From NCBI RefSeq assembly GCF_006345805.1, contig NC_043001.1, positions 114,886,001 to 114,950,000 of the forward strand: DNA of 64,000 bases, written 5' to 3'. Each line of letters starts with the position of its first letter. Positions within the stretch are counted from its first letter, which is position 1. Of the stretch, positions 3,816 through 58,296 are shown piece after piece. A model generated the notes under the pieces. It saw nothing but the letters and a program-made list of their open reading frames with translations. It was not told where the DNA came from and ran no database searches. Position numbers and translations under genes: made by a program. Origin of the DNA: Octopus sinensis (taxonomy: Eukaryota).

Positions 3816-3944
3816 TATATTCATTGAATCATACAGGTTTGAAGAGTTACATTCATGACTTGAAGTTTCAGTGTCAATAACTAGATGATCAAAAACAAAA
3901 CAAATTACATTTTACTTTTAGAAAATTATCTGTACTGTTTGCGT

Positions 3945-4121
3945 TTATATAAATGTTTCGCAAGATTTCTGATGTGAAATTGGTGTATTGAAATAGATAT
4001 TGTTATATTTAGGATGTTTTTTTTTTTGCGTATTAACCGCATGCACTATATGCTTGGTTTTTACTTCAGCTTAATAATTATTATTCTTACTTTAGTGTCT
4101 TTTGTCTAAAGTCTTTCGTCA
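3945..4121 (-). mobile_element. diverged partial copy of the 24788-25283 repeat family
   Basis: GCAAGATTT..ATGTGAA..TTGAAATAGATATTGTTATATTT..GCACTATAT..CTTCAG..AAAGTCTTTCGTCA aligns to 24807-24983. Truncated in (TA)n inside the ribozyme-like stem II. Confidence 0.6.
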
Positions 4122-4614: not shown

Positions 4615-5585
4615 ATATATATATATATATGAAGGTGTGTGTGTGTGTGTGTGTGGTGTGTGTGTGTAGGTAAGAATGTGTAGTTAAACTTAGCAATATG
4701 CAAACAGACATCAGATAGATAACGCACCCTGTCCACAAATAGCATGGCCAAGCTATTTCCTGGTAACTAAGAGAAATCTGTCAGGGAAAAAAGCCTTATC
4801 AGACATCAAAGCTTATTCATGGACCTGTTTCGAATGATATAAAGACAAGTGTGTATGTGTGAGTGTGTGTGTGTGTGGTGTGTGTGTGTGTGTGAGTGTG
4901 TGTGTGTGTGTGTGTGTTGTGTGTGTGTGTGTGTTGTGTGTGTGTGTGTATTTGTACACAGTGAAATTACTGATGCTGGAATGTGAAGAAAATCAGTGAA
5001 GGTTTCTCATTGCAGTTGATAGTAAGCTGCTCTGTCTCTGTCTCTCTCCCTCTCTCTCTCTCATTCTGTCTCACTTTATCTCTTTCTCTTCCTCTCGCAC
5101 TTTGTATCCCCAGCACCCTCTCCTATTATTGTTCTGTCTCTCTTTGCCTTTCACATTCTCACTCTTTCTTTCTTACTCTTTCCTTATCACACTTTTCTCT
5201 ATCTTTCTCTCTCTCTTTCTTTCTCGTTGTATCACCTCGCAGTTTACGCACACGGCAAGCGTCCATTAACAAAGCAAAACTCGTCGAGTTGTTCGTTTGT
5301 GAGCTTTGCAGAGTAAAGGAAACTTTCAACAAGTGTCGATGAGCACAGCAAGGCAAAATACATTAAGTTTTTGTTTATAAGTCTATTAACACGCCGCTTC
5401 AATAGTTTTGTTGCTAGATAGCACCTACTAAAGACTACAGTGATTTTTATATGCATAACATGTATGAATACCACTCATAGCATTTTCATTGACTCCTTGT
5501 AAACTAACTTATGTCTCTGCACAACAAATTCATTAGAGATGTCTTATCGAGCTATTCCCCGGAAGGTTAGGACATGTTGCACAGT

Positions 5586-5719
5586 TCGATATTGAACTGT
5601 GCAACATGTCCTAACCTGCTAGAAGGATCAGAATTCCTCTTTAAAGAGGGACTCGATATCGAACTGCGCAACATGTCGTAACCTGCTAGAAGGATCAGAA
5701 TTCCTCTTTAAAGAGGGAC
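5586..5719 (+). repeat. 67-bp tandem duplication (2 copies)
   Basis: 5586-5652 and 5653-5719 differ by about 3 substitutions. Confidence 0.95.
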
Positions 5720-5880
5720 AGAAATTCAAGATCAAATCTAACTTTACTTGTGCCTCTGAAAACATAATTTATGTCATAAAATGCTCGGGCTGCCACCAAG
5801 ACTACGTGGGTTCCACGGGACTATCACTCAGACGTAGATGCACACTGCATCGACAACAGATTGCATTCCCAGAATATAGA
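5594..5880 (+). mobile_element. Penelope-like element GIY-YIG endonuclease fragment with Cys-rich linker (Neptune-like)
   Basis: Combining the two tandem copies gives NCATCPNLLEGSEFLFKEG, then QKFKIKSNFTCASENIIYVIKCSGCHQDYVGSTGLSLRRRCTLHRQQI. This is the C..C linker plus the NIIY..C..C...YVG GIY-YIG signature. Confidence 0.88.
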
Positions 5881-6701
5881 ATGAAAAGCAAAAACCAATC
5901 AGAATTTGAAAGACTGTTGGCGGTAATCTATAATGTATCTAGACTCTGTATCTTAGACAGCTTAGACGATTATATATATATATATATATCATACATTAAT
6001 TGAAGGAAATTTATAACGAGTTGACTAATCCATAAGGGAAACAAATGTATAGTCATAGGTTTTTAAATATGAAATTGGTAAAAGTTATTGAAAGTCTGAG
6101 TTTATAAAGTCTTGGTATAGGTCTTGTTTGTATAATACTTATGATAGCGTTTTTGATGGGAGGAAGAGGGAAGTGATACGGAAGGGGAATGTGGGCGTGG
6201 AAAGAAGTATGCCGAGAAGAGAAAAGAAGTGGTAGAGAAAAAGAAAACGAAAATATGAAAAAGAAGAAATTGTATCACATAACCCAATTTTTTTACAGAC
6301 ACTAGAATGAATATGAATATTCCAAAGGTGCATTTCTTTGTTTTTATCTCTTTCTTTTTCTGTGGTAATAGAATGACATTTTGTAATTTATCAAGAAAAT
6401 ATTAATATAAACGGCTAGACAATACTAACTCTATTGGCTTTAACAGCCTGTTGAATATCCTACTGTAAATGACCAATTAACATACATCAAATAGATATTC
6501 TCAGACTACTTTGACAAGTATATTCTTCCTTTTGCAAACCTCCAGTTTGAACCTGTCAATGCCACTTTTGTTTAGCTGATTTCACCAAATTAACACTATC
6601 CTAGGTATTAGAATATGTAATTTGGTTATCTGATAGAATAGAAGACCCTAAACTAAAACCGGCCAAGAAACCATATTTATATATAACAGTATATATATTC
6701 T

Positions 6702-12722: not shown

Positions 12723-13162
12723 TGTATATATATATGCATGTATATGTAATTGTGTGTGTCTGTGTGTCTGTGAGAATGGTAGGTGATATATTTGTTTAGG
12801 AATATATGAATGTTTGAAAGTGCGCAGATTCTGTTGAATATAGTGTGTAGGCGCTTAGAGGGTGAAGCAGGCGGCAGGGGAAGATCTCGATCAATTTATT
12901 TCTAAATAGTCTATGTGATTATCACAAGGGAATGGTCGCAGGTGATACGTATGAAATGTTTTATGGTTGCAAACCTCTGTTTGTGGAATCTAGGCAATAG
13001 GCTCGATTTCCGCTTGAGACATTTCTTTATAGTTAGCAAGTAAATAGTCGCATAGAACTACAAGCAAACAAAAAAAAGCAGTTGTTGGCGTTGATCTGAT
13101 TAACTAAATCTCTGGCAGAGATACACGTCTCCCCTTGGGAACGTAAGACGTTTATGGGTAGG

Positions 13163-13542
13163 AGCACTCCGTCGGTTACGACGATGAGGGTCCCAGCTGA
13201 TAGGATCAACGGAACAGCTTGCTCGTGGAATTAACGTGCAAGTGGCTGAGCACTCCACAGACACTTGCACTCTTAACGTAGTTCTCGGGGATATTCAGCG
13301 TGGCACAGACAGTGACAAGGCCGGCCCCTTGAAATACATGTACAACAGAAACAGGAAGTAAGAGTGAGAGAAGGTTATGGTGAAAGAGTACAGCAGGGAT
13401 CACCACCATCCCCTGCCGGAGCATCGTGGAGCTTTAGGTGTTTCCGCTCAATAAACACTCACAACGCCCGGTCTGCGAATCGAAACCGCGATCCTACGAA
13501 AGCGAGTCCGCTGCCCTAACCACTGGGCCATTGCGCCTCCAC
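13163..13542 (-). mobile_element. tRNA-derived SINE family B, full length
   Basis: Minus-strand head GGAGGCGCAATGGCCCAGTGGTTAGGGCAGCGGACTCGC..GGTTTCGATTC (A/B boxes). Near-identical to the 25825 and 50408 copies. TSD ACGTTT(A/C)TGGGT at 13148-13159 / 13543-13554. Confidence 0.93.
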
Positions 13543-14389
13543 ACGTTTCTGGGTGCTTATTAGTCCACCGGAATTTTAAACTAATTACAACCAACAAATC
13601 GCAGTTCATGTGCGGAGAAAAAAAGATGGACAGGCGTTTGTCCTTCCCTAGCCTTATCCAAACTTTATGGATTTGAGCTTTTGTAAGAAATCAATTTTAT
13701 TTCATTCAACGTTGAAGTTTTCATTAAATGGCTTCTCTGGCTCTTTCTCACCGGTAACTCAATCCTAAGCACAGCTACCGAGTAGCACGTCTGCATATCA
13801 TATAAATTGATCGTCTTGCAAGGAAGGAGTATTTGGTTACAGTGCTGAAGAAAAGATGATACTAATGATGGGTATTATTTTAGATCTGATGATATGGCTA
13901 AAATATCGATCTAGTGCTGAGGGCAGCTACCAGTGGTTTTAGAACCACAACCTCCAATCCAACCATAGTGTGCCCTATCATGCGATAGTTGGTTGTCTGG
14001 TCACACAATATCCAATTTCCTCTAGCCTGTGTTCCTTTATCATTTTGGTGTTAAATCATTACTTTATTTGGTCCCATACTTCTCTCTTTTCCTAGAAGTC
14101 TCTCAGGTGTTTTGATATTGTTAGTGGTACAGTAATGTTGTTAACAACAGACTAAGGCATTCAGTGAATGTTTTAGAAATGGTGTTCTAATAGGTAATAT
14201 ATTTTAGCCTTACTGATTTCACTGTCGTTGAGAATGAAAACAAAAATAGCAATTGAGATCCATGTCTTGTATATTATAGTTTACTGAGAAGTTTGTGTCC
14301 ATGATCCTTTTACATAGGCTCCAAGACTGAAAGAAAAAGGGAGGAATATATCCGTAAATCGGTAGAACGCTGTGTCAATTTTCCCGCGT

Positions 14390-15470
14390 CCGTGATGTTT
14401 ACCCGAAAGTCGAGCAAGGAGACCTCTTTTCCACTATAAATCGGCTCTCCCTATCAATGCCAAAATGAACTAAAGATGCAGTGACAACAACAGCCGGGAT
14501 GCACATGTTATTCAGTTTCTAAAGATACTTGGGGCTAACGTATATATCCTACATCCCTTTCTAACTCCATACAGAAATGCAGGCCAGCTAAATGTCGCAA
14601 GAGGGATCTCTCTGAATCCTCTTTCCTGAAGCTTCCCTACTTCAATGAGAAGAACGTCTGCGCCATCTGCAAGGCAATCTGCAGGGAAGGACTCAACATT
14701 CGATTGGCCCGTTCAGGACCGCCCCGATGCAAGTATCCATCAATGTTCAGTACAACAACCCTGTACCCAATGAACTGCCCATTCATGACCATTACATATG
14801 ATCACGTACGTACGTCGTATACCAAATACGATGGTCCTAATGCAGCAACCACAACATTGGTAGCACAACACGACCACTCCACGTCCGAATTAAGGAGCAT
14901 CTCACCACCAACGCGTCCTCCTTCTGCAACCACCGGAGCAGAAGTGGCAACACCACCGAGGAGATAGACGCCTGGATACTAGCCTCTGGGAATAACACCG
15001 GCAATTTACTTCTAAAAGAGGCTCTGCTGATCCACCGTTTCAACCCGAAAATTAACAGTCGACTAGAGTTAAGTCAGTGGTTCTTATGACAACATCCAAC
15101 AGATGTTCAATGCCTTGCAACTGCAGTCGACATTTGTTTACACTAACACTCGGACAAGCGACTACTACTACTACTGATGTAACGCCGTCACACTACAAAT
15201 GGTGAGTTGTTTATAGCAACAGCTGCGAGACGTCGATTGCATCTACATTTGGAGAGCGACTGTTGCTCGGGAATTTGAATGGATTAACGGATTCTACATA
15301 ACTGAACTGTTCGTTGACTGTACTTTCTATCTGAAGATGGGCCTTTGCGCCTGAAATATAAATGTTTTATTAAACATTCAGCATTCTCAGAAGCTGTCTA
15401 TTTTCCCTCTTTTTACATTCTTCGATATTACAATGCTTCAATCCAACTGCAGCGCTGTTATATATATATA
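14390..15470 (+). mobile_element. 5'-truncated Penelope-like element (RT thumb, linker, GIY-YIG, 3' terminal repeat), decayed
   Basis: HYKSALPINAKMN, FLKLPYFNEK, and YVVYQIRWS*CSNHNIGSTTRPLHVRIKEH...LLLKEALLIHRFNPKIN* (stop 15087-15089). Hammerhead-like motif downstream; ends in (TA)n. Confidence 0.9.
15331..15360 (+). ncRNA. hammerhead-ribozyme-like motif in PLE 3' repeat
   Basis: CUGAAGA-U-GGGC(cuuugc)GCCU-GAA-AUAU-A: canonical core, 1-nt insertion, palindromic AUAU. Stem I is poorly preserved. Confidence 0.65.
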
Positions 15471-17236: not shown

Positions 17237-17290
17237 TCCTATATATATATATATATATATATATATACTACGTTTATATATTTATATATT

Positions 17291-17497
17291 TAGTAAGGAG
17301 AGACACACAAATAAGAAAGAAGAAAGCAAAGGACTACTGATGGGGTCACAGGATTGTGACGAAAGAAATCTGGCCGAAATAAGATTAAGTTTAATGTAAA
17401 AAATAAATAACACTGAAGCAAAGTAACACCAAATATATAGTGCGTCTGTTTTTATTGGCTAAACTGGCAAAATGACCATTCCGAAATACAACAATAT
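17291..17497 (+). mobile_element. single arm of the 24843-25283 family (PLE-type terminal repeat)
   Basis: Colinear with 25084-25283. Contains CUGAUGG-G-GUCACA(ggau)UGUGAC-GAAA at about 17337-17364. (TA)n on both sides. Confidence 0.85.
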
Positions 17498-18990
17498 ATA
17501 TATATATATATAGAAATTCTCCAAACGAAGTCGTATGGTTTTTCGTAGTTTAACGGTGATGCAAAAGATAGTAACAACCACGAATACAGGAATACAGTTC
17601 CTTAAATGTATTGAATATAAAAATTCATTACCAATGCGCGCACACACACACATACTGACGCGCGCGTGAGCACTGTTGTACGTATGATTGTGCATGCGTA
17701 TTTGTGTATGTGTGGATGAATATGTTCAACTGTGTTGATTGATGTATGCGCGCAATCAGAAAATTAAATATGTTTATGCTCAGATATTTGTTTCTCCCTG
17801 TATATGTTTGTGTGCGTCGAATGGCTTTAGGTCCGTATGCTTCTTCTTTGTAAGTGTATCAGTATTTGTGTGTTTGTATGTGTCTATGTTTGTGTGCAGG
17901 CATGGTTGTATGAAATTGATGACGTGATCATGGATGACTTTGTCATATTTCATTTCTATTTTCTCACACCTCATAAAATGTCTTTCTTTCCCGTTTTATA
18001 GTTCGTATATTATATTTTTCCCGCTTGCAATCATCTCGACATTTCTAGAGGCGTTTCATTTTATCTTCACAATGATATATGTTTCACTGTCCGAAATGAT
18101 GTCGCCTTTGACGATATTAACAGAGCTTTTGAAATTCTCAGTTTAAATATGCTGGTTTCTTCAAAATAAATTCAGAATTATTCTTCCTGAATATTTAGCA
18201 ACACAAAATGTGTTCATTCTTCAAGCTGCCGCCATTATCATGCATTTCACCATTAAGTGGGGGGAATATTTGATTCTCTTTAGAATTGATAGGTCGTCAG
18301 TTTTCTGTTGTAAGTCTCTGTTAAAAGCATAAAATGTGAGCGAATTTCGTTCCGTGTTAGGGTGCGATATTCTCCAAAATATAACATCCGATGCGGCGTG
18401 GTGCGTAGCACCATAACCAAAGCTAGAAAATACGACACTGCGAAGTGGAAACAATAGTGAGGAAAGCGAAAGGTGTTCATGAACCTCCACTTCGCTCTTG
18501 CGCTCACGCCATGAGTTATTTTCCGTGTTTGTAAGAAGTTTAGTGCATATTACACCATGTTGATTTTGAAGTATTTCTTCCTAAATCATACTCTCTACAA
18601 TTGCTCTGAAAAAGATTAGTCTTCTTGACTTCGAAATGCTTAATTATCAGACGTTCAAAACACACATAAAATCTGAATGCTGTTTTTCTCCAATCGAAAT
18701 AAAGTCTCTATTAATAAGGGCTTTCTCTTCCTTTATTTCCCCCTCTCTCTCTCCCTCTTTCCCTCCTTCCAACAATCTCTCTCTCTCTCTCCCTCACTCA
18801 TTCCCTCTTTCTCCTTCTTTTCACTTATTCTTTATTATAGCTGTTGTCTTTGAGAGCCGTATCATTTTTGACGTAGCACAGCTAAAATCAAACCTTTCCA
18901 ACCATGGCCATTACGTCATTCTCACGCTCATTCATGTTTCACCTATACTTGAAACTACAACTTTCCTTTATGAGAGTATCCAGACTCTTC

Positions 18991-19082
18991 CAATACTAAA
19001 ACTAATATACTACTGGAACCGTCCATGAACGGACAGTTGTCCGTTCATGGACGGTTCCAGTAGTATATTAGTTTTAGTATTG
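18991..19082. repeat. perfect 45-bp inverted repeat with 2-nt loop
   Basis: CAATACTAAAACTAATATACTACTGGAACCGTCCATGAACGGACA-gt-exact reverse complement. Confidence 0.97.
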
Positions 19083-19864
19083 AAAGAATAGAATGCAAGT
19101 GGAGAAGAGGAAATATAGAATAAAGCATTTGGAGTCGCTATCATATTACGAATCCTCAAGTGGGTGATTTAAGATGTTTCAATGCCATTCATTTAACTCA
19201 TTATTTTTATATAAACCATTTGGTATATTTCTGTTGTTATCGTTACGCCTGACTCATCGTAAACTAAATACCACTGTGACCGATATCCAAACTACAGTGA
19301 AAAAGGCTAGCCACTGGATTTGGTTAAAAAGAGACGATATGCGATGGCTAGAAGAATATTGAGCTTTATTTGATAACCAGTTAATCTAGCAGGGGAAGGT
19401 GCTCATATCATTCAGGGGGACCAGTGTGCATTGATGCCGTCGAGATGTAGGCCCGAAACGGCGCGCATTCTCTCCTGATGGGCCCATACACTTGCTGGCT
19501 TCCAATATGTGGAGTTCTTAACTAGTAGCACTTGCATATGCAAATTGTTTGCAAAACATATATTTACACTGAAGCAGTTTTGATTTTGGCACAAAACAAT
19601 TCAGAAAGCCGGCAGGCTTCAACGTGTTGAGTTGAAATTTTTTCACTTGGCAAAACTTGCTGATGAAGGTTAAAGCTTTTCGCCAGAACTAGACATAATG
19701 ATTGAAGTGTATCAAAATACCAAACTATATAGCATTGGTATATTAAAAATTATTTAACCCATTCGCCTGACTGCTGTTGTTTTTCTGTTGAATTTTTTCA
19801 GTTATTGGAAGTTTAACACGAGGGTTTCACTCCTCTTTCTAGCAGGTAGGTACGTTGTGTGCCC

Positions 19865-24298: not shown

Positions 24299-24337
24299 AT
24301 TTTCTATATATAATGCATACATGCATATATATGTGTT

Positions 24338-24338
24338 C

Positions 24339-24371
<33 letters not shown>

Positions 24372-24492
24372 TAGATATATATATCTATATATACATATAG
24401 ATATATGTATATATATATTATGTACATACATATATAATATATATATATGTATGTACATATATATATATTATGCATATATATACGTATATAAT

Positions 24493-24559
<67 letters not shown>

Positions 24560-24589
24560 TATATATATATATATATATATGTACATACA

Positions 24590-24624
<35 letters not shown>

Positions 24625-24710
24625 GTATGTACATATATATATATATTGCATATATATATACGTATATATATATATACATATATATATATAGTACATACAT
24701 ATATATACAT

Positions 24711-24787
<77 letters not shown>
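24338..24787. repeat. long imperfect (TA)n tract
   Basis: Seen directly. Many other (TA)n tracts, e.g. 2827-2906, 4532-4630, 12598-12735, 30471-30572, 36985-37110, 40090-40233, 58893-59052. Confidence 0.97.
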
Positions 24788-24842
24788 CGTTTAAATATTT
24801 TGTTGTGCAAGATTTTTTATGTGAAGTCGTGTGTTGAAACAG

Positions 24843-25283
24843 ATATTGTTATATTTCGGAATGGTCATATTGCCAGTTAGGCCAATAAAAACACACGCAC
24901 TATATATTTGGTGTTATTTTGCTTCAGTGATATTTATTTTTTACATTAATCTTAATCTTATTTCGGCCAAAGTTCTTTCGTCACACTCCTGTGACCGCAT
25001 CAGTGGTCCTTTGTTTTCTTCTCACTTACTTGTGTCTCTCCTTACTACCGTCAGCCATTTTATATATAAAATGGCTGACGGTTAGTAAGGAGAGACACAA
25101 GTAAGTGAGAAGAAAACAAAGGACCACTGATGCGGTCACAGGAGTGTGACGAAAGAACTTGGCCGAAATAAGATAAGATTAATGTAAAAAATAAATATCA
25201 CTGAAGCAAAATAACACCAAATTATAGTGCGTGTGTTTTATTGGCTAAACTGGCAATATGACCATTCCGAAATATAACAATAT
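24843..25283. mobile_element. about 440-bp near-perfect palindrome: two inverted PLE-type terminal repeats, each with a hammerhead-like motif
   Basis: Arms are reverse complements around CAGCCATTT-TATATATA-AAATGGCTG (centre 25064/25065). Each arm has CCA-CUGAUGC-G-GUCACA(ggag)UGUGAC-GAAAGAACUU(U)GG. Confidence 0.9.
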
Positions 25284-25824
25284 ATATATATAGATATATA
25301 TATATATGCATGTATCCATTTATGTATGTATTTGTGTACAATATGTCTACATGTGTAAGAGTGTATTTATATTACTTTTACGCACATATTATCTGCGGGG
25401 TTTACCAGAGTATTACAATCTCCTGAACGTTAATTCTCATATCGAGAAGCCAGTCGATGGATGATTTTCTATATAGGCAGAACACCAATTTAGATCGACA
25501 TTATAATGAAGAAAATCACATGTACAATATGGTCCTGTAGTTGACGGGATTTCAATGAAGCATGTAAGATGATGTAACTAAATACTCACTAGCAAAGGTT
25601 CCATAGAATTTTTTGGTAGTGTATTTGTAAGCATTCTAAATGGATATTCCTGATTCTACGAAGATGCAACTATTTTAAATAAAGCTGTAACTCAAAATCA
25701 TTTATAGCAAAGTTACACAATGATATTATAATTTATCTAAACCTCAAATACTAAAATCTGAGGATTTTGATATGAAACTAAATCTATGACTAGATACTAA
25801 ACATAACATAAACTGGGGGGGGGG

Positions 25825-26189
25825 GCACTCCGTCGGTTATGACGACGAGGGTTCCGGTTGATCCGATCAACGGAACAGCCTGATCGTGAAATTAACGTGT
25901 AAGTGGCTGAGCACTCCACAGACTCGTGTACCCTTAACGTAGTTCTCGGGGATATTCAGCGTGACACAGAGAGCGACAAGGCCGGCCCTTTGAAATACAG
26001 GTACAACAGAAACAGAAAGTAAGAGTGAGAGAAAGTTGTGATGAAAGAGTACAGCAAGGATCACCACCATCCCTGCCGGAACCTCGTGGAGCTTTAGGTG
26101 TTTTCGCTCAATAAACACTCACAACGAATCGAAAACGCGATCCTACGACCGCTAGTCCGCTGTCCTAACCACTGGGCCATTGCGCCTCC
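25825..26189 (-). mobile_element. SINE family B, near full length
   Basis: Matches the 13163-13542 copy. TSD CATAA(C/A)ATAAACT at 25802-25814 / 26190-26202. Confidence 0.93.
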
Positions 26190-28189: not shown

Positions 28190-28419
28190 CGAGGCGCTTT
28201 CAAAAGGTATATGACTTTATTTTTTCCTGCCAAATCTAACGGCTCGTGGGCAAAGTTTTTGCGGTGGAAGATGACGTCACCCTTCCTGTGCAGCGGTCCG
28301 ATCATCACTACAAACTTGGCCGACAGACGGATTTGTCCCACACGTGACAGCAGCATTTCAATATAACCCACAAGTCAGCAATGCCCGGACACTGAACGAG
28401 GGCGTGCAGAAGGGCTTTC
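28190..28419 (+). mobile_element. possible mariner 5' end fragment
   Basis: TA-CGAGGCGCTTTCAAAAGGTAT resembles mariner TIRs; it is followed by a decayed start of transposase-like sequence. Confidence 0.4.
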
Positions 28420-28576
28420 CTTTTTGTGCCTTATTATTTAACACACTCACCGCTAAAATTTCCACTTAGTTCTTATTGTTATTTTCCTAAAATTTTTCTT
28501 GCGTCTTGCAAACTTTTCAGTAAGAAATAAGTAGAAATTTTACCGGTGAGTTTGTTAAATTATAAGGCACAAAAAG
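28420..28576. repeat. about 59-bp imperfect inverted repeat enclosing a hammerhead-like motif
   Basis: CTTTTTGTGCCTTAT.ATTTAACA.ACTCACCG.TAAAATTTC.ACTTA.TTCTTA.TG is mirrored at 28518-28576. Confidence 0.85.
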
Positions 28577-28602
28577 AAAATGACTCTCCCCAGACACAAC
28601 AG

Positions 28603-33209: not shown

Positions 33210-33454
33210 GCTGTGAGAAAATTGTTAAGCAATAGTTAATTTAGATAAGATACGAAATAGAGAGTGAAATGGAGGAATGAAAATATATGTGAGATATGTA
33301 GGGATATTGCATTTGTAGATCCATTATTTAGGCAGAATGGTATACATATAAGATTCCAATACTTTGTGAGTAAATTCCAATAGTATCTAAAATTGTTCAT
33401 TCCAAGTATAAAGTTTGTACACAGTGCTATTGAATCAAGGGTTTTATTTATTCC

Positions 33455-33860
33455 TTCCTACAATTCGACATAAATAATTACTACTCTTCTAATTTTCCTA
33501 AACTTCTTAATCAGGCTCTTCTTCTAGCTAGGGACCTTACTAACCTCAGCCCACTAGAAATTAACATAAAACTTAATGCCCGCAAAACTCTTATTTCTTT
33601 TGAAAGCAAACTCTGGTGCCAGGCCAATAACCACAGCAATAATCATAGCAACCTATTTGACATAACCATGGCATCATCTTATTCAGCTCAGGTCACTGAC
33701 TTACTTGGACTATATATACTACATCACCTCCATATACTTTTTCCTAACATCAAGGGAGGCCTATACAGGGACGACGCTTTGTTAGTTACCAAAAGCATAA
33801 ATAAATCTTAAGAAGAACTTCAAAGGATCTACACAACATACTTTAAGATGATTTGCTAGC
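33455..33860 (+). mobile_element. Penelope-like RT core fragment, Naiad-type motifs
   Basis: Stop-free frame 33455-33811, absent from the ORF track: FLQFDINNYYSS..KLLNQALLLA..NARKTLISFESKLW..LFDITMASSYSAQVTDLLGLYIL..GGLYRDDALL. Confidence 0.85.
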
Positions 33861-37661: not shown

Positions 37662-38281
37662 TAGAATGTTGATAAAATCACACTCGAGTTGATATGTATA
37701 AGGGAAATAAGAAAAGTTAGAAAATGCTAATATAATTATCATGAAATACGCTGTGTAACGGTTAGCACCGGTTTCTGCCTTTTAGACTTTTCCAACTAAG
37801 AGTAAAACAAAGCTGGATATCAATAGAGAAGAAAAACGATTGCATTGAAGAAAAAATAAATGAAATGTTTTAGAAATATTTCTATAGTCTTCAAATAAGT
37901 AGGACGTTTTTTCTGTTTTGTGTCTCACTCACTTTCCGTTTGTGAAGGCTGGTGAGGTAGGCAGTCCCCGATCTGAAAAAATGTGTTAATGTTTGTAGAG
38001 ATATATTTGATTCTACGCACCTTACGGTCGTTCACAAATGAAAATGAGAGAGACAGAAAAAAGGAAAATATCTTATCTATTTGAAGACTATGGAAATATT
38101 TACAAAATATTTCATTCAAATTTTTCTTTAATTTAATTGTTTTTGCTCTCAGTTAATAGCCATCTTTATGTTTACTCTTAGTTGAAAAAGTCGAAAAGGC
38201 AGAACCCGGTACTAACCGTTACACAATGTATTTTTTGATAAAATTATTCTAGCATTTTCTAACTTGTTTTATTTTCCTTGT
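37662..38281. mobile_element. about 600-bp imperfect palindrome: inverted PLE-type terminal repeats (family U3A8)
   Basis: 37700-37945 is the reverse complement of about 38030-38280. Hammerhead-like motifs at 37762-37799 (-) and 38178-38215 (+). Flanked by microsatellites. Confidence 0.85.
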
Positions 38282-50407: not shown

Positions 50408-50788
50408 AGCACTCCGTCGGTTACGACGATGAGGGTTCCGGTTGATCCGAATCAACGGAACAGCCTGCTCGTGAAATTAACGTGTAAGTGGCTGAGCACT
50501 CCACAGACACGTGCACCCTTAACGTAGTTTTCGGGGATATTCAGCGTGACACAGAAAGTGACAAGGCCGGCCCTTTGAAATACAGGTACAACAGAAACAG
50601 GAAGTTAGAGTGGAGTGAGAGAAAGTTGAGGCGAAAGAGTACAACAGGGTCGCCCCCCCCCTGCCGGAGCCTCGTGGAGCTTTAGGTGTTTTCGCTCAAT
50701 AAACACACACAACGCCCGGTCTGGGAATCGAAACCGCGATCTTCTGACCGCGAGTCCGCTGCCCTAACCACTGGGCCATTGCGCCTCC
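50408..50788 (-). mobile_element. SINE family B, full length
   Basis: Matches the other two copies. TSD ACAGCG(A/T)GAAGGAAAT at 50387-50402 / 50789-50804. Confidence 0.94.
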
Positions 50789-51289
50789 ACAGCGTGAAGG
50801 AAATAGAGGAGAGAGAACGGGAAACAAAAGAATAGAGGCAGAAAGCTAGAGAATGTGAGTGTGAAAGAGTCAGAAGACGGCATGACTATGGCTAATGGAT
50901 GTTAAGTGATAGGCATGAATATAGAGCAAACAATTTCGCGCTGTTACTATCATACCGAATTAAAAATTAAGCACAGACAATAGATAACATAGACAGGACA
51001 AGATATACACAATGCAACTAGCATTTTCATCCATCTCTTCGCTAACGGTCTAACAATTCGGCATATTATATCTGCGTACGATTGTATACGTACACACACT
51101 AGCGTGTATGCGCACGCTCGTGTGTGTGTGTGAAGGGAGAGAGGAGACAGATAGAGACAAACAGACAAACAGACAGAGACTGACAAGGGAGAGAAAGAGA
51201 AAGAGACCGACGGTTTCACAGTGTCAAACACAGATCTAGATACAGTATATCTATGAGTTTATATAAGTCAATGTCAGTATAGATGTGTA

Positions 51290-55221: not shown

Positions 55222-55315
55222 ACATTTCTTTCCTGAGCGTCCAATAATACTATATTTGTTCCACGTCCTCGCGTTGTGGTGTTTTTTTTTTGTGCTTTCT
55301 TGTTTGGATTAACTA
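55222..55315 (+). mobile_element. truncated inverted copy of the 58082-58296 repeat
   Basis: TTTCTTTCCTGAGCGTCCAATAATACTATATTTGTTCCACGTCCTCGCGTTGT is the near reverse complement of about 58121-58173. Confidence 0.8.
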
Positions 55316-58081: not shown

Positions 58082-58296
58082 AGTTTCCAACCATGAACAT
58101 GAAAACACAAAGAGAAAACACAACAACGCGAGGACGCGGAACAAGTATAGTATTGTTGGACGCCCAGGAAAGAAGGAAAGAAGGGTTTAACGCTTCGAGC
58201 GGAGCTCTTCGTCAGAAACATAGAAAAAGCAAAGATCGAAAGAAGGGAAGACGGAGGGGAAAAATCGCCAACTGTACACACGCGGTCACATTTTGA
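58082..58296 (-). mobile_element. PLE-type terminal repeat with hammerhead-like motif at 58185-58219
   Basis: Minus strand: GUUU-CUGACGA-A-GAGC(ucc)GCUC-GAAGCGU-U-AAAC. (TA)n on both sides. Confidence 0.75.

Follow-up and report, generated by a model that had tools for sequence, protein, structure and literature searches.

Head-to-head arms of a probable Penelope-like family in octopus DNA: a likely young insertion bearing hammerhead-like motifs

Introduction

A near-perfect palindrome that carries the same hammerhead-like motif on both strands raises the question of whether it is a unit built to deliver ribozyme or double-stranded RNA, or the trace left by an ordinary mobile element. One such palindrome lies in a 64,000-nucleotide stretch of AT-rich, microsatellite-rich animal DNA from Octopus sinensis (referred to as the window, with coordinates counted from its first letter), where it had been picked out in a sequence-only reading. 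Its anatomy, its relatives in the window and in public sequencing runs, and its motif were examined, and are compared here with published systems.

Results

Anatomy of the palindrome

The palindrome was found to be 441 bp long (24843–25283), in agreement with the ~440 bp first claimed, with its centre between 25064 and 25065 and a perfect core of 18 bp on each side. The resulting perfect 36-bp junction palindrome (25047–25082) marks the point where the arms meet head to head, and the central TATATATA, from which the arms were said to diverge, was located at 25061–25068. The left arm (24843–25064, minus strand, running outward from the centre) and the right arm (25065–25283, plus strand) are both pLTR-like units, and share 96.9% identity over 223 columns (E 9e-100). 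They are separated by five single-base gaps and two adjacent mismatches, the latter equivalent to the gain of one base and the loss of another, so the description of the arms as differing mainly by single-base indels holds. Four single-base deletions were found in the right arm relative to both the left arm and a further copy at 17.3 kb.

The range 24788–25283, reported as palindromic, is so for 24843–25283, but its first part, 24788–24842, is an unpaired 55-bp extension that prolongs the left arm (minus strand) at its 3' end. This tail is absent from the right arm and from the arm at 17.3 kb, but is common to a relative at 3942–4014, and classes of loose ends were detected in contigs at 24799 and 24843. 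The right arm and the 17.3-kb copy stop at the identical end base and then run into (TA)n, and contigs with the same class of end were found at 24843. To the left of the palindrome is a (TA)n-rich microsatellite (24318–24787, the start being approximate), which is the probable target, and to the right is a further (TA)n segment (25284–25308) beyond which the two sides are not mirror images, the flanks having only (TA)n in common. As both flanks are (TA)n, a target duplication cannot be delimited. Among the open reading frames (ORFs) of the palindrome copy there was no coding frame within the unit, nor an ORF with reverse transcriptase (RT) and GIY-YIG domains.

Two other assignments were considered and rejected. 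A MITE or fold-back DNA transposon would have equal terminal inverted repeats with fixed ends, whereas here the ends differ by the 55-bp tail and the inner junctions vary. A GTAAGT near the arm start is followed by the next AG after 21 nt, before helix I of the motif and without a pyrimidine tract, and was not taken for an intron.

Related copies and other repeats in the window

A second, tail-less copy of the family (17291–17497, plus strand) lies in (TA)n and is 90.8% identical to the left arm, with 17 mismatches and two gaps. It had been described as a solo arm; the copy is indeed present, but position 9 of its core is G rather than C, and it is not truly solo, as 15 nt just in front of it (17269–17283, minus strand) read as an inverted stub of the end of the tail. 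The stub equals the consensus that loose ends at the end of the tail show in runs X1, X2 and X10, and its first 8-mer occurs three times in the window, twice at elements of the palindrome family. Judged by this match, the stub appears to be a very short inverted partner of the 17.3-kb copy. If so, the palindrome and the 17.3-kb insertion share one plan, in which an inverted arm from the tail end is joined to a tail-less arm from near the 5' end of the unit. As the stub consists of tail sequence that is absent from the long arm at this location, it cannot have been copied from that arm.

The older relative placed at 3945–4121 was also recovered. It extends over 3942–4121 (minus strand), includes the tail and the 3' part of the unit, and is truncated inside the hammerhead motif, of which it retains only the last part; identity is 81% over 3942–4014 (the best 74 nt), with a weaker likeness continuing to ~4121.

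Several other repeats were recorded in the window. An older head-to-head palindrome of a different family at 37700–38279 has arms of ~250 bp (204 matches, 40 mismatches and six gaps), a central spacer and (TA)n at its right end, and no canonical hammerhead core was found within it; this is possibly another PLE-type stub (PLE, Penelope-like element). A near-perfect 102-bp palindrome at 18986–19087 (49 matches and one mismatch), each arm of which contains a palindrome of its own, is located outside (TA)n, and a 165-bp imperfect palindrome at 28416–28580 adjoins an (AAT)n run and the apparent end of a LINE coding region. A 380-bp repeat is present in three copies that are 88–89% identical (13161–13543, 25822–26189 and 50408–50791), the second of which begins ~540 bp to the right of the palindrome.

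Copies and junctions in public sequencing runs

The palindrome stretch was detected in 20 of the 24 runs listed, which belong to 11 studies, in all cases in contigs. When the contigs of four runs were placed on 24790–25110 at 85% likeness, 9744, 7841, 4528 and 4441 fitted. Though depth in these data is no measure of copy number, the thousands of fitting contigs in all four runs indicate a high-copy family. A search with a 24-letter motif gave no match in viral, prokaryote-genome or metagenome contigs.

Of the 15 joints listed, among 39 detected, eleven link a left-arm position (24894–25026) to the arm start (25064–25079), the others being three skips within one arm and one strand change, and five further left-arm-to-arm-start junctions were among the best 12 of 19 rows in a second junction table. 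At least 16 other head-to-head junctions are therefore present, in which inverted arms of different lengths face a nearly complete arm. Three of the 11 joints recur in two runs. The likeness threshold for all joints was 85%, the shorter side has fewer than 30 letters in 10 of the 11, and as only 46 bp of the right arm were included in the placement target, junctions with a nearly complete arm are favoured. A near-symmetric centre was bridged by one contig of run X1 (one of 32 pieces listed), and summed depth at 25043–25064 falls short of that of the arm by a factor of roughly 10 to 500. Conserved loose ends with a shared consensus were found before 25064 in 35–64 contigs per run, a pattern that suggests that some family copies continue upstream of the arm start. 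The joint from 25084 to 24914 in run X1 has a depth of 980, the highest among the rows listed, and may come from a subfamily that has lost the hammerhead motif through an internal deletion.

Head-to-head copies of the family do occur elsewhere, in contigs from four studies, and their inverted arms are of many lengths. Since the junction differs between loci, construction of the mirror at each insertion is expected and copying of the whole palindrome is not, and the palindrome is likely to be rebuilt each time rather than copied as a unit. The proposal of a mobile unit made solely of inverted ribozyme-bearing repeats is not supported, given the many lengths of inverted arm found elsewhere (11 of the 15 joints listed) and the difference between the two ends of this insertion.

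Integrity of the assembled locus

The differences between the arms bear on both the age of the palindrome and its reality. The older palindrome at 37700–38279 has accumulated 40 mismatches and six gaps, against two mismatches and five gaps here, and at least five gaps among seven events has a probability of 2e-4 to 5e-3 if gaps make up a share of 0.1–0.2. At all four deletion sites of the right arm the 17.3-kb copy agrees with the left arm, and the variants listed for the runs at a share of 5% or more include no gap of this kind. The left-arm letters at 24879–24880 are in turn contradicted by more than 99% of the depth in all four runs. The arm differences are therefore probable consensus errors rather than signs of age, and the true arms are likely to be identical.

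These same errors could be taken to mean that the right arm is an assembly artefact derived from a fold-back long read, as the sequence-only reading had allowed. The differences are almost exclusively single-base gaps in short runs, the window has the look of an error-prone assembly, and no run contains more than 0.67 of 49 sequence words, close to the 0.62–0.68 expected if words spanning the differences were absent, though this last point is weak. However, in a fold-back read the tail and the left flank would appear in mirror image as well, while here the tail is one-sided, the flanks share only (TA)n and the right arm stops at the tail-less end of the family. Head-to-head junctions were moreover present in contigs of four studies. 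The indels thus do look like consensus error, but the anatomy argues against a fold-back read, and an artefact of this kind is considered improbable.

The hammerhead-like motif

The letters CUGAUGC-G-GUCACA-GGAG-UGUGAC-GAAA are present at 25127–25154 (plus strand) and 24976–25003 (minus strand), and are shaped like the minimal type I hammerheads that metazoan PLEs carry: helix II has 6 bp and is closed by G-C (G10.1-C11.1), helix I is bulged and has 5 bp, position 9 is followed by an extra base (G), and helix III is vestigial and near-palindromic. In the minus-strand core, the helix I strands are at ~25004–25009 and 24965–24969, and the predicted cut is between 24970 and 24969. The motif is found on both strands because any inverted repeat yields that outcome. 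The claim that it is the same on both applies to the core letters; through helices III and I the two are not identical as assembled, because the right arm lacks one base 3' of GAAA. A relaxed core scan of the whole window returned four matches, namely the two palindrome arms, 17337–17364 and a weak one with a 4-bp stem at 15331, compared with a mean of 0.33 and a maximum of three in 30 block shuffles. The strand order is that of a plain type I, so a permuted hammerhead was rejected.

The core departs from the canonical CUGANGA ... GAAA ... UH at position 9, which is C in the two palindrome arms and G in the copy at 17.3 kb. C is the majority letter of the family at this position, A making up 18, 31, 28 and 15% of the depth in the four runs, values biased towards the C-bearing reference. 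Position 17, which is U in the palindrome, is C in 65–89% of the depth across runs, and no helix II variant is listed at 5% or more of the depth. In the helix III region, AGAACU forms four pairs and two A-A mismatches in the arms, and two pairs in the 17.3-kb copy. A free co-fold did not predict a hammerhead dimer, and the predicted fold energy of the motif is not beyond that of shuffles (z -1.2 to -1.7; 16–22 of 200 shuffles as good). Dimeric PLE hammerhead variants were reportedly the subject of a 2017 paper. In the search of Rfam, the best 150 of 182 matches for the palindrome included no hammerhead family; for the hairpin they included only miRNA families below gathering scores, which are generic hairpin matches. 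Changes to the hammerhead core usually cost much activity, and the available text on core variants, figures aside, does not list a change at position 9 (PMC3088659). No paper naming A9C in hammerheads was found in a search of the text of the papers available.

The depth shows neither a step at the predicted cut site nor a pile-up of ends there, contigs being a blunt measure of both, which is consistent with copying from uncut RNA, as for PAc in vitro. Copies starting at the predicted cut site were likewise rejected as a class, a single junction having been found at 24969. In fold prediction, the helix II pair probability falls from 0.92 for a single arm to 5e-20 in the read-through RNA of the palindrome; the palindrome would then hide both motifs rather than present them.

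A different minimal-hammerhead-like motif at 58185–58215 (minus strand) has the canonical CUGACGA, an extra A, a 4-bp helix II and GAAG instead of GAAA, and downstream of it is an inverted match to 55237–55304.

Search for an autonomous partner

Neither the protein searches with the tail frame nor the comparison with PLE proteins linked an RT or GIY-YIG frame to the palindrome family. The tail contributes to a frame of 40 residues, for which two protein searches each returned one short uncharacterised protein: P0005, from Octopus bimaculoides (E 1.5e-4), and P0006, an unnamed protein of 79 aa (E 6.2e-4). Similar peptides are encoded in the left arm (24794–24913, minus strand), the relative at 3942–4020 (minus strand, with a frameshift), P0005 and P0006. 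The resemblance hints that an ORF may once have started in the tail, as it does in other PLEs, and this stays a hint because P0005 and P0006 are themselves likely to be translated copies.

PLE-type coding fragments are present elsewhere in the window. A GIY-YIG fragment at 5564–5883 is 88% identical to P0001, with a 67-bp tandem duplication (5586–5719) and a 54-bp fold-back at its 5' end; its 5595–5883 portion retrieved four PLE proteins, two of them with a Pfam RT domain, whose matches were confined to this portion and did not include the arms. A frame with a YRDD motif at 33434–33811, which ends near (TA)n, resembles a fragment of a PLE-type reverse transcriptase and has no Pfam match.

Discussion

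Origin of the palindrome

The palindrome is, on balance, probably a single very young insertion of an abundant Penelope-like family, in which two short ends bearing the ribozyme motif lie head to head in a TA repeat. It is likely to be an ordinary PLE footprint rather than a purpose-built ribozyme or double-stranded-RNA device. The sequence-only reading had offered a PLE derivative or fold-back replication product, which was correct in kind. From the anatomy, the tail on one side, the shared tail-less end point, the abundance and the variable lengths of the inverted arms, we infer the following course. The endonuclease/RT of an autonomous partner, acting in trans, would cut both strands of a (TA)n target. 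Each cut end would then prime reverse transcription on element RNA, the two starts lying at the outer end and at the inner boundary of the tail, and both cDNAs would reach the 5' end of the RNA and be joined across the TATA overlap. One cDNA would usually stop early, giving rise to the lopsided forms, and the RNA template would probably not have been cut by the hammerhead.

The mirror arm of the same Penelope-type insertion could instead have arisen by self-priming: the TATATA end of the first cDNA, being self-complementary, would have folded back and primed a copy of that cDNA as far as the tail boundary. Junction palindromes have been interpreted in this way before (PMC3846280), and the perfect 36-bp palindrome at the centre is in keeping with it, as are the minority letters of the family that both arms share (24917, 24930 and 25023–25029) and the fold-back (5564–5617) with which the PLE coding fragment begins. 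However, a cDNA copying itself would have no reason to stop at the fixed inner end of the family, and a PLE protein extends both target strands in vitro (PMC11167929). The inverted stub at 17.3 kb, made of tail sequence that its partner arm does not have, favours double priming, albeit as a single AT-rich case of 15 nt. Self-priming is regarded as unlikely.

A more distant alternative is that the palindrome is itself a mobile non-autonomous unit, whose two-way TATA centre would drive the same ribozyme RNA from both strands, with the whole hairpin being copied. The TATATATA at the centre, the contig of run X1 that bridges a near-symmetric centre and the lack of a coding frame are all compatible with such a unit, and non-autonomous hammerhead-bearing PLE derivatives are known (bioRxiv 10.64898/2026.07.22.740005). 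The different junctions, at least 16 in number, the shortfall of depth at the centre, the unequal ends and the predicted failure of helix II to form in read-through RNA all count against it, and this origin is judged very improbable. A bolder reading would make the unit of ~275 nt a self-sufficient, SINE-like PLE passenger of very high copy number with C at position 9. Either its core would still cut, making it an A9C variant found in nature in which the extra G steps in, or the ribozyme would have become dispensable. Complete head-to-head copies would serve as promoters in both directions, giving rise to new copies and to hairpin RNA. This is a long shot.

Significance

As a locus, the palindrome is one more clean example of a known PLE class and little beyond that. 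The parts of most value are the C9 majority, a natural test of whether PLEs need a working hammerhead, and the test of double priming. As to how PLEs build their inverted ends, a high-copy family that is young and includes both complete and lopsided forms is well suited to deciding between double priming and self-priming. If transcribed, dispersed perfect hairpins could also feed RNA editing or small-RNA pathways.

Comparison with known systems

The available text of PMC9977147 and PMC13282606 contains nothing on the family of the palindrome. The closest parallels are insertions of EN+ (endonuclease-bearing) PLEs. In Pen2a_Av and its relatives, 218-bp pLTRs are accompanied by an inverted pLTR placed head to head; the palindromes at the junctions measure 18 and 38 bp, TATATATA can be read in either direction, and one inverted pLTR carries a tail (PMC3846280). 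An inverted 5'-truncated copy, a tail at one end and a bias for (TA)n targets are general features of PLEs (PMC8557442), and Penelope itself has inverted repeats of varying size (PMC2377424). Four of the six features compared were found here, namely the inverted truncated copy, the tail at one end, the hammerhead motif in the pLTR and the (TA)n target. The head-to-head arms of ~220 bp are of pLTR size, and the junction palindrome, the two-way TATATATA, the tail on one arm and the variable truncation of the inverted copy also correspond to these accounts (PMC3846280; PMC8557442). Unlike those insertions, there is no ORF between the repeats, no readable target duplication and no autonomous partner found, and the tail is 55 bp rather than the 30–40 bp given in the published descriptions.

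The motif resembles the minimal hammerheads of metazoan PLEs (PMC4209133) in that helix II has 6 bp and contains G10.1-C11.1, helix I is short, an additional base lies between positions 9 and 10.1, and helix III is vestigial and near-palindromic. Dual minimal hammerheads on opposite strands are described there at distances of 100–700 bp, and the pair here is ~120 bp apart. Position 9 is C here and the extra base is G, against the >80% consensus CUGANGAH given in the same source.

Metazoan non-LTR retrozymes (PMC7229834; bioRxiv 10.64898/2026.07.22.740005) are, like this unit, short, non-coding, AT-rich, high-copy and PLE-related, with a type I hammerhead. According to the same sources they are head-to-tail tandems, whereas no head-to-tail tandem of two or more hammerhead units was found among the family copies in the window, and the core here is minimal and non-canonical.

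A further parallel is the in vitro reaction of PAc, the Poseidon of Anolis (PMC11167929). In it, both target strands are cut and extended, two RT start sites bound the tail and uncut RNA is the main substrate. The PAc hammerhead overlaps the start of an ORF, whereas the palindrome unit has no long ORF following it. The reaction is nonetheless similar in its two RT starts bounding the tail, its AT-rich target and its extension of both strands, and predicts the anatomy of the palindrome. Head-to-head pLTRs, a one-sided tail, a two-way TATATATA, a (TA)n target and hammerheads on opposite strands have all already been published for PLEs.
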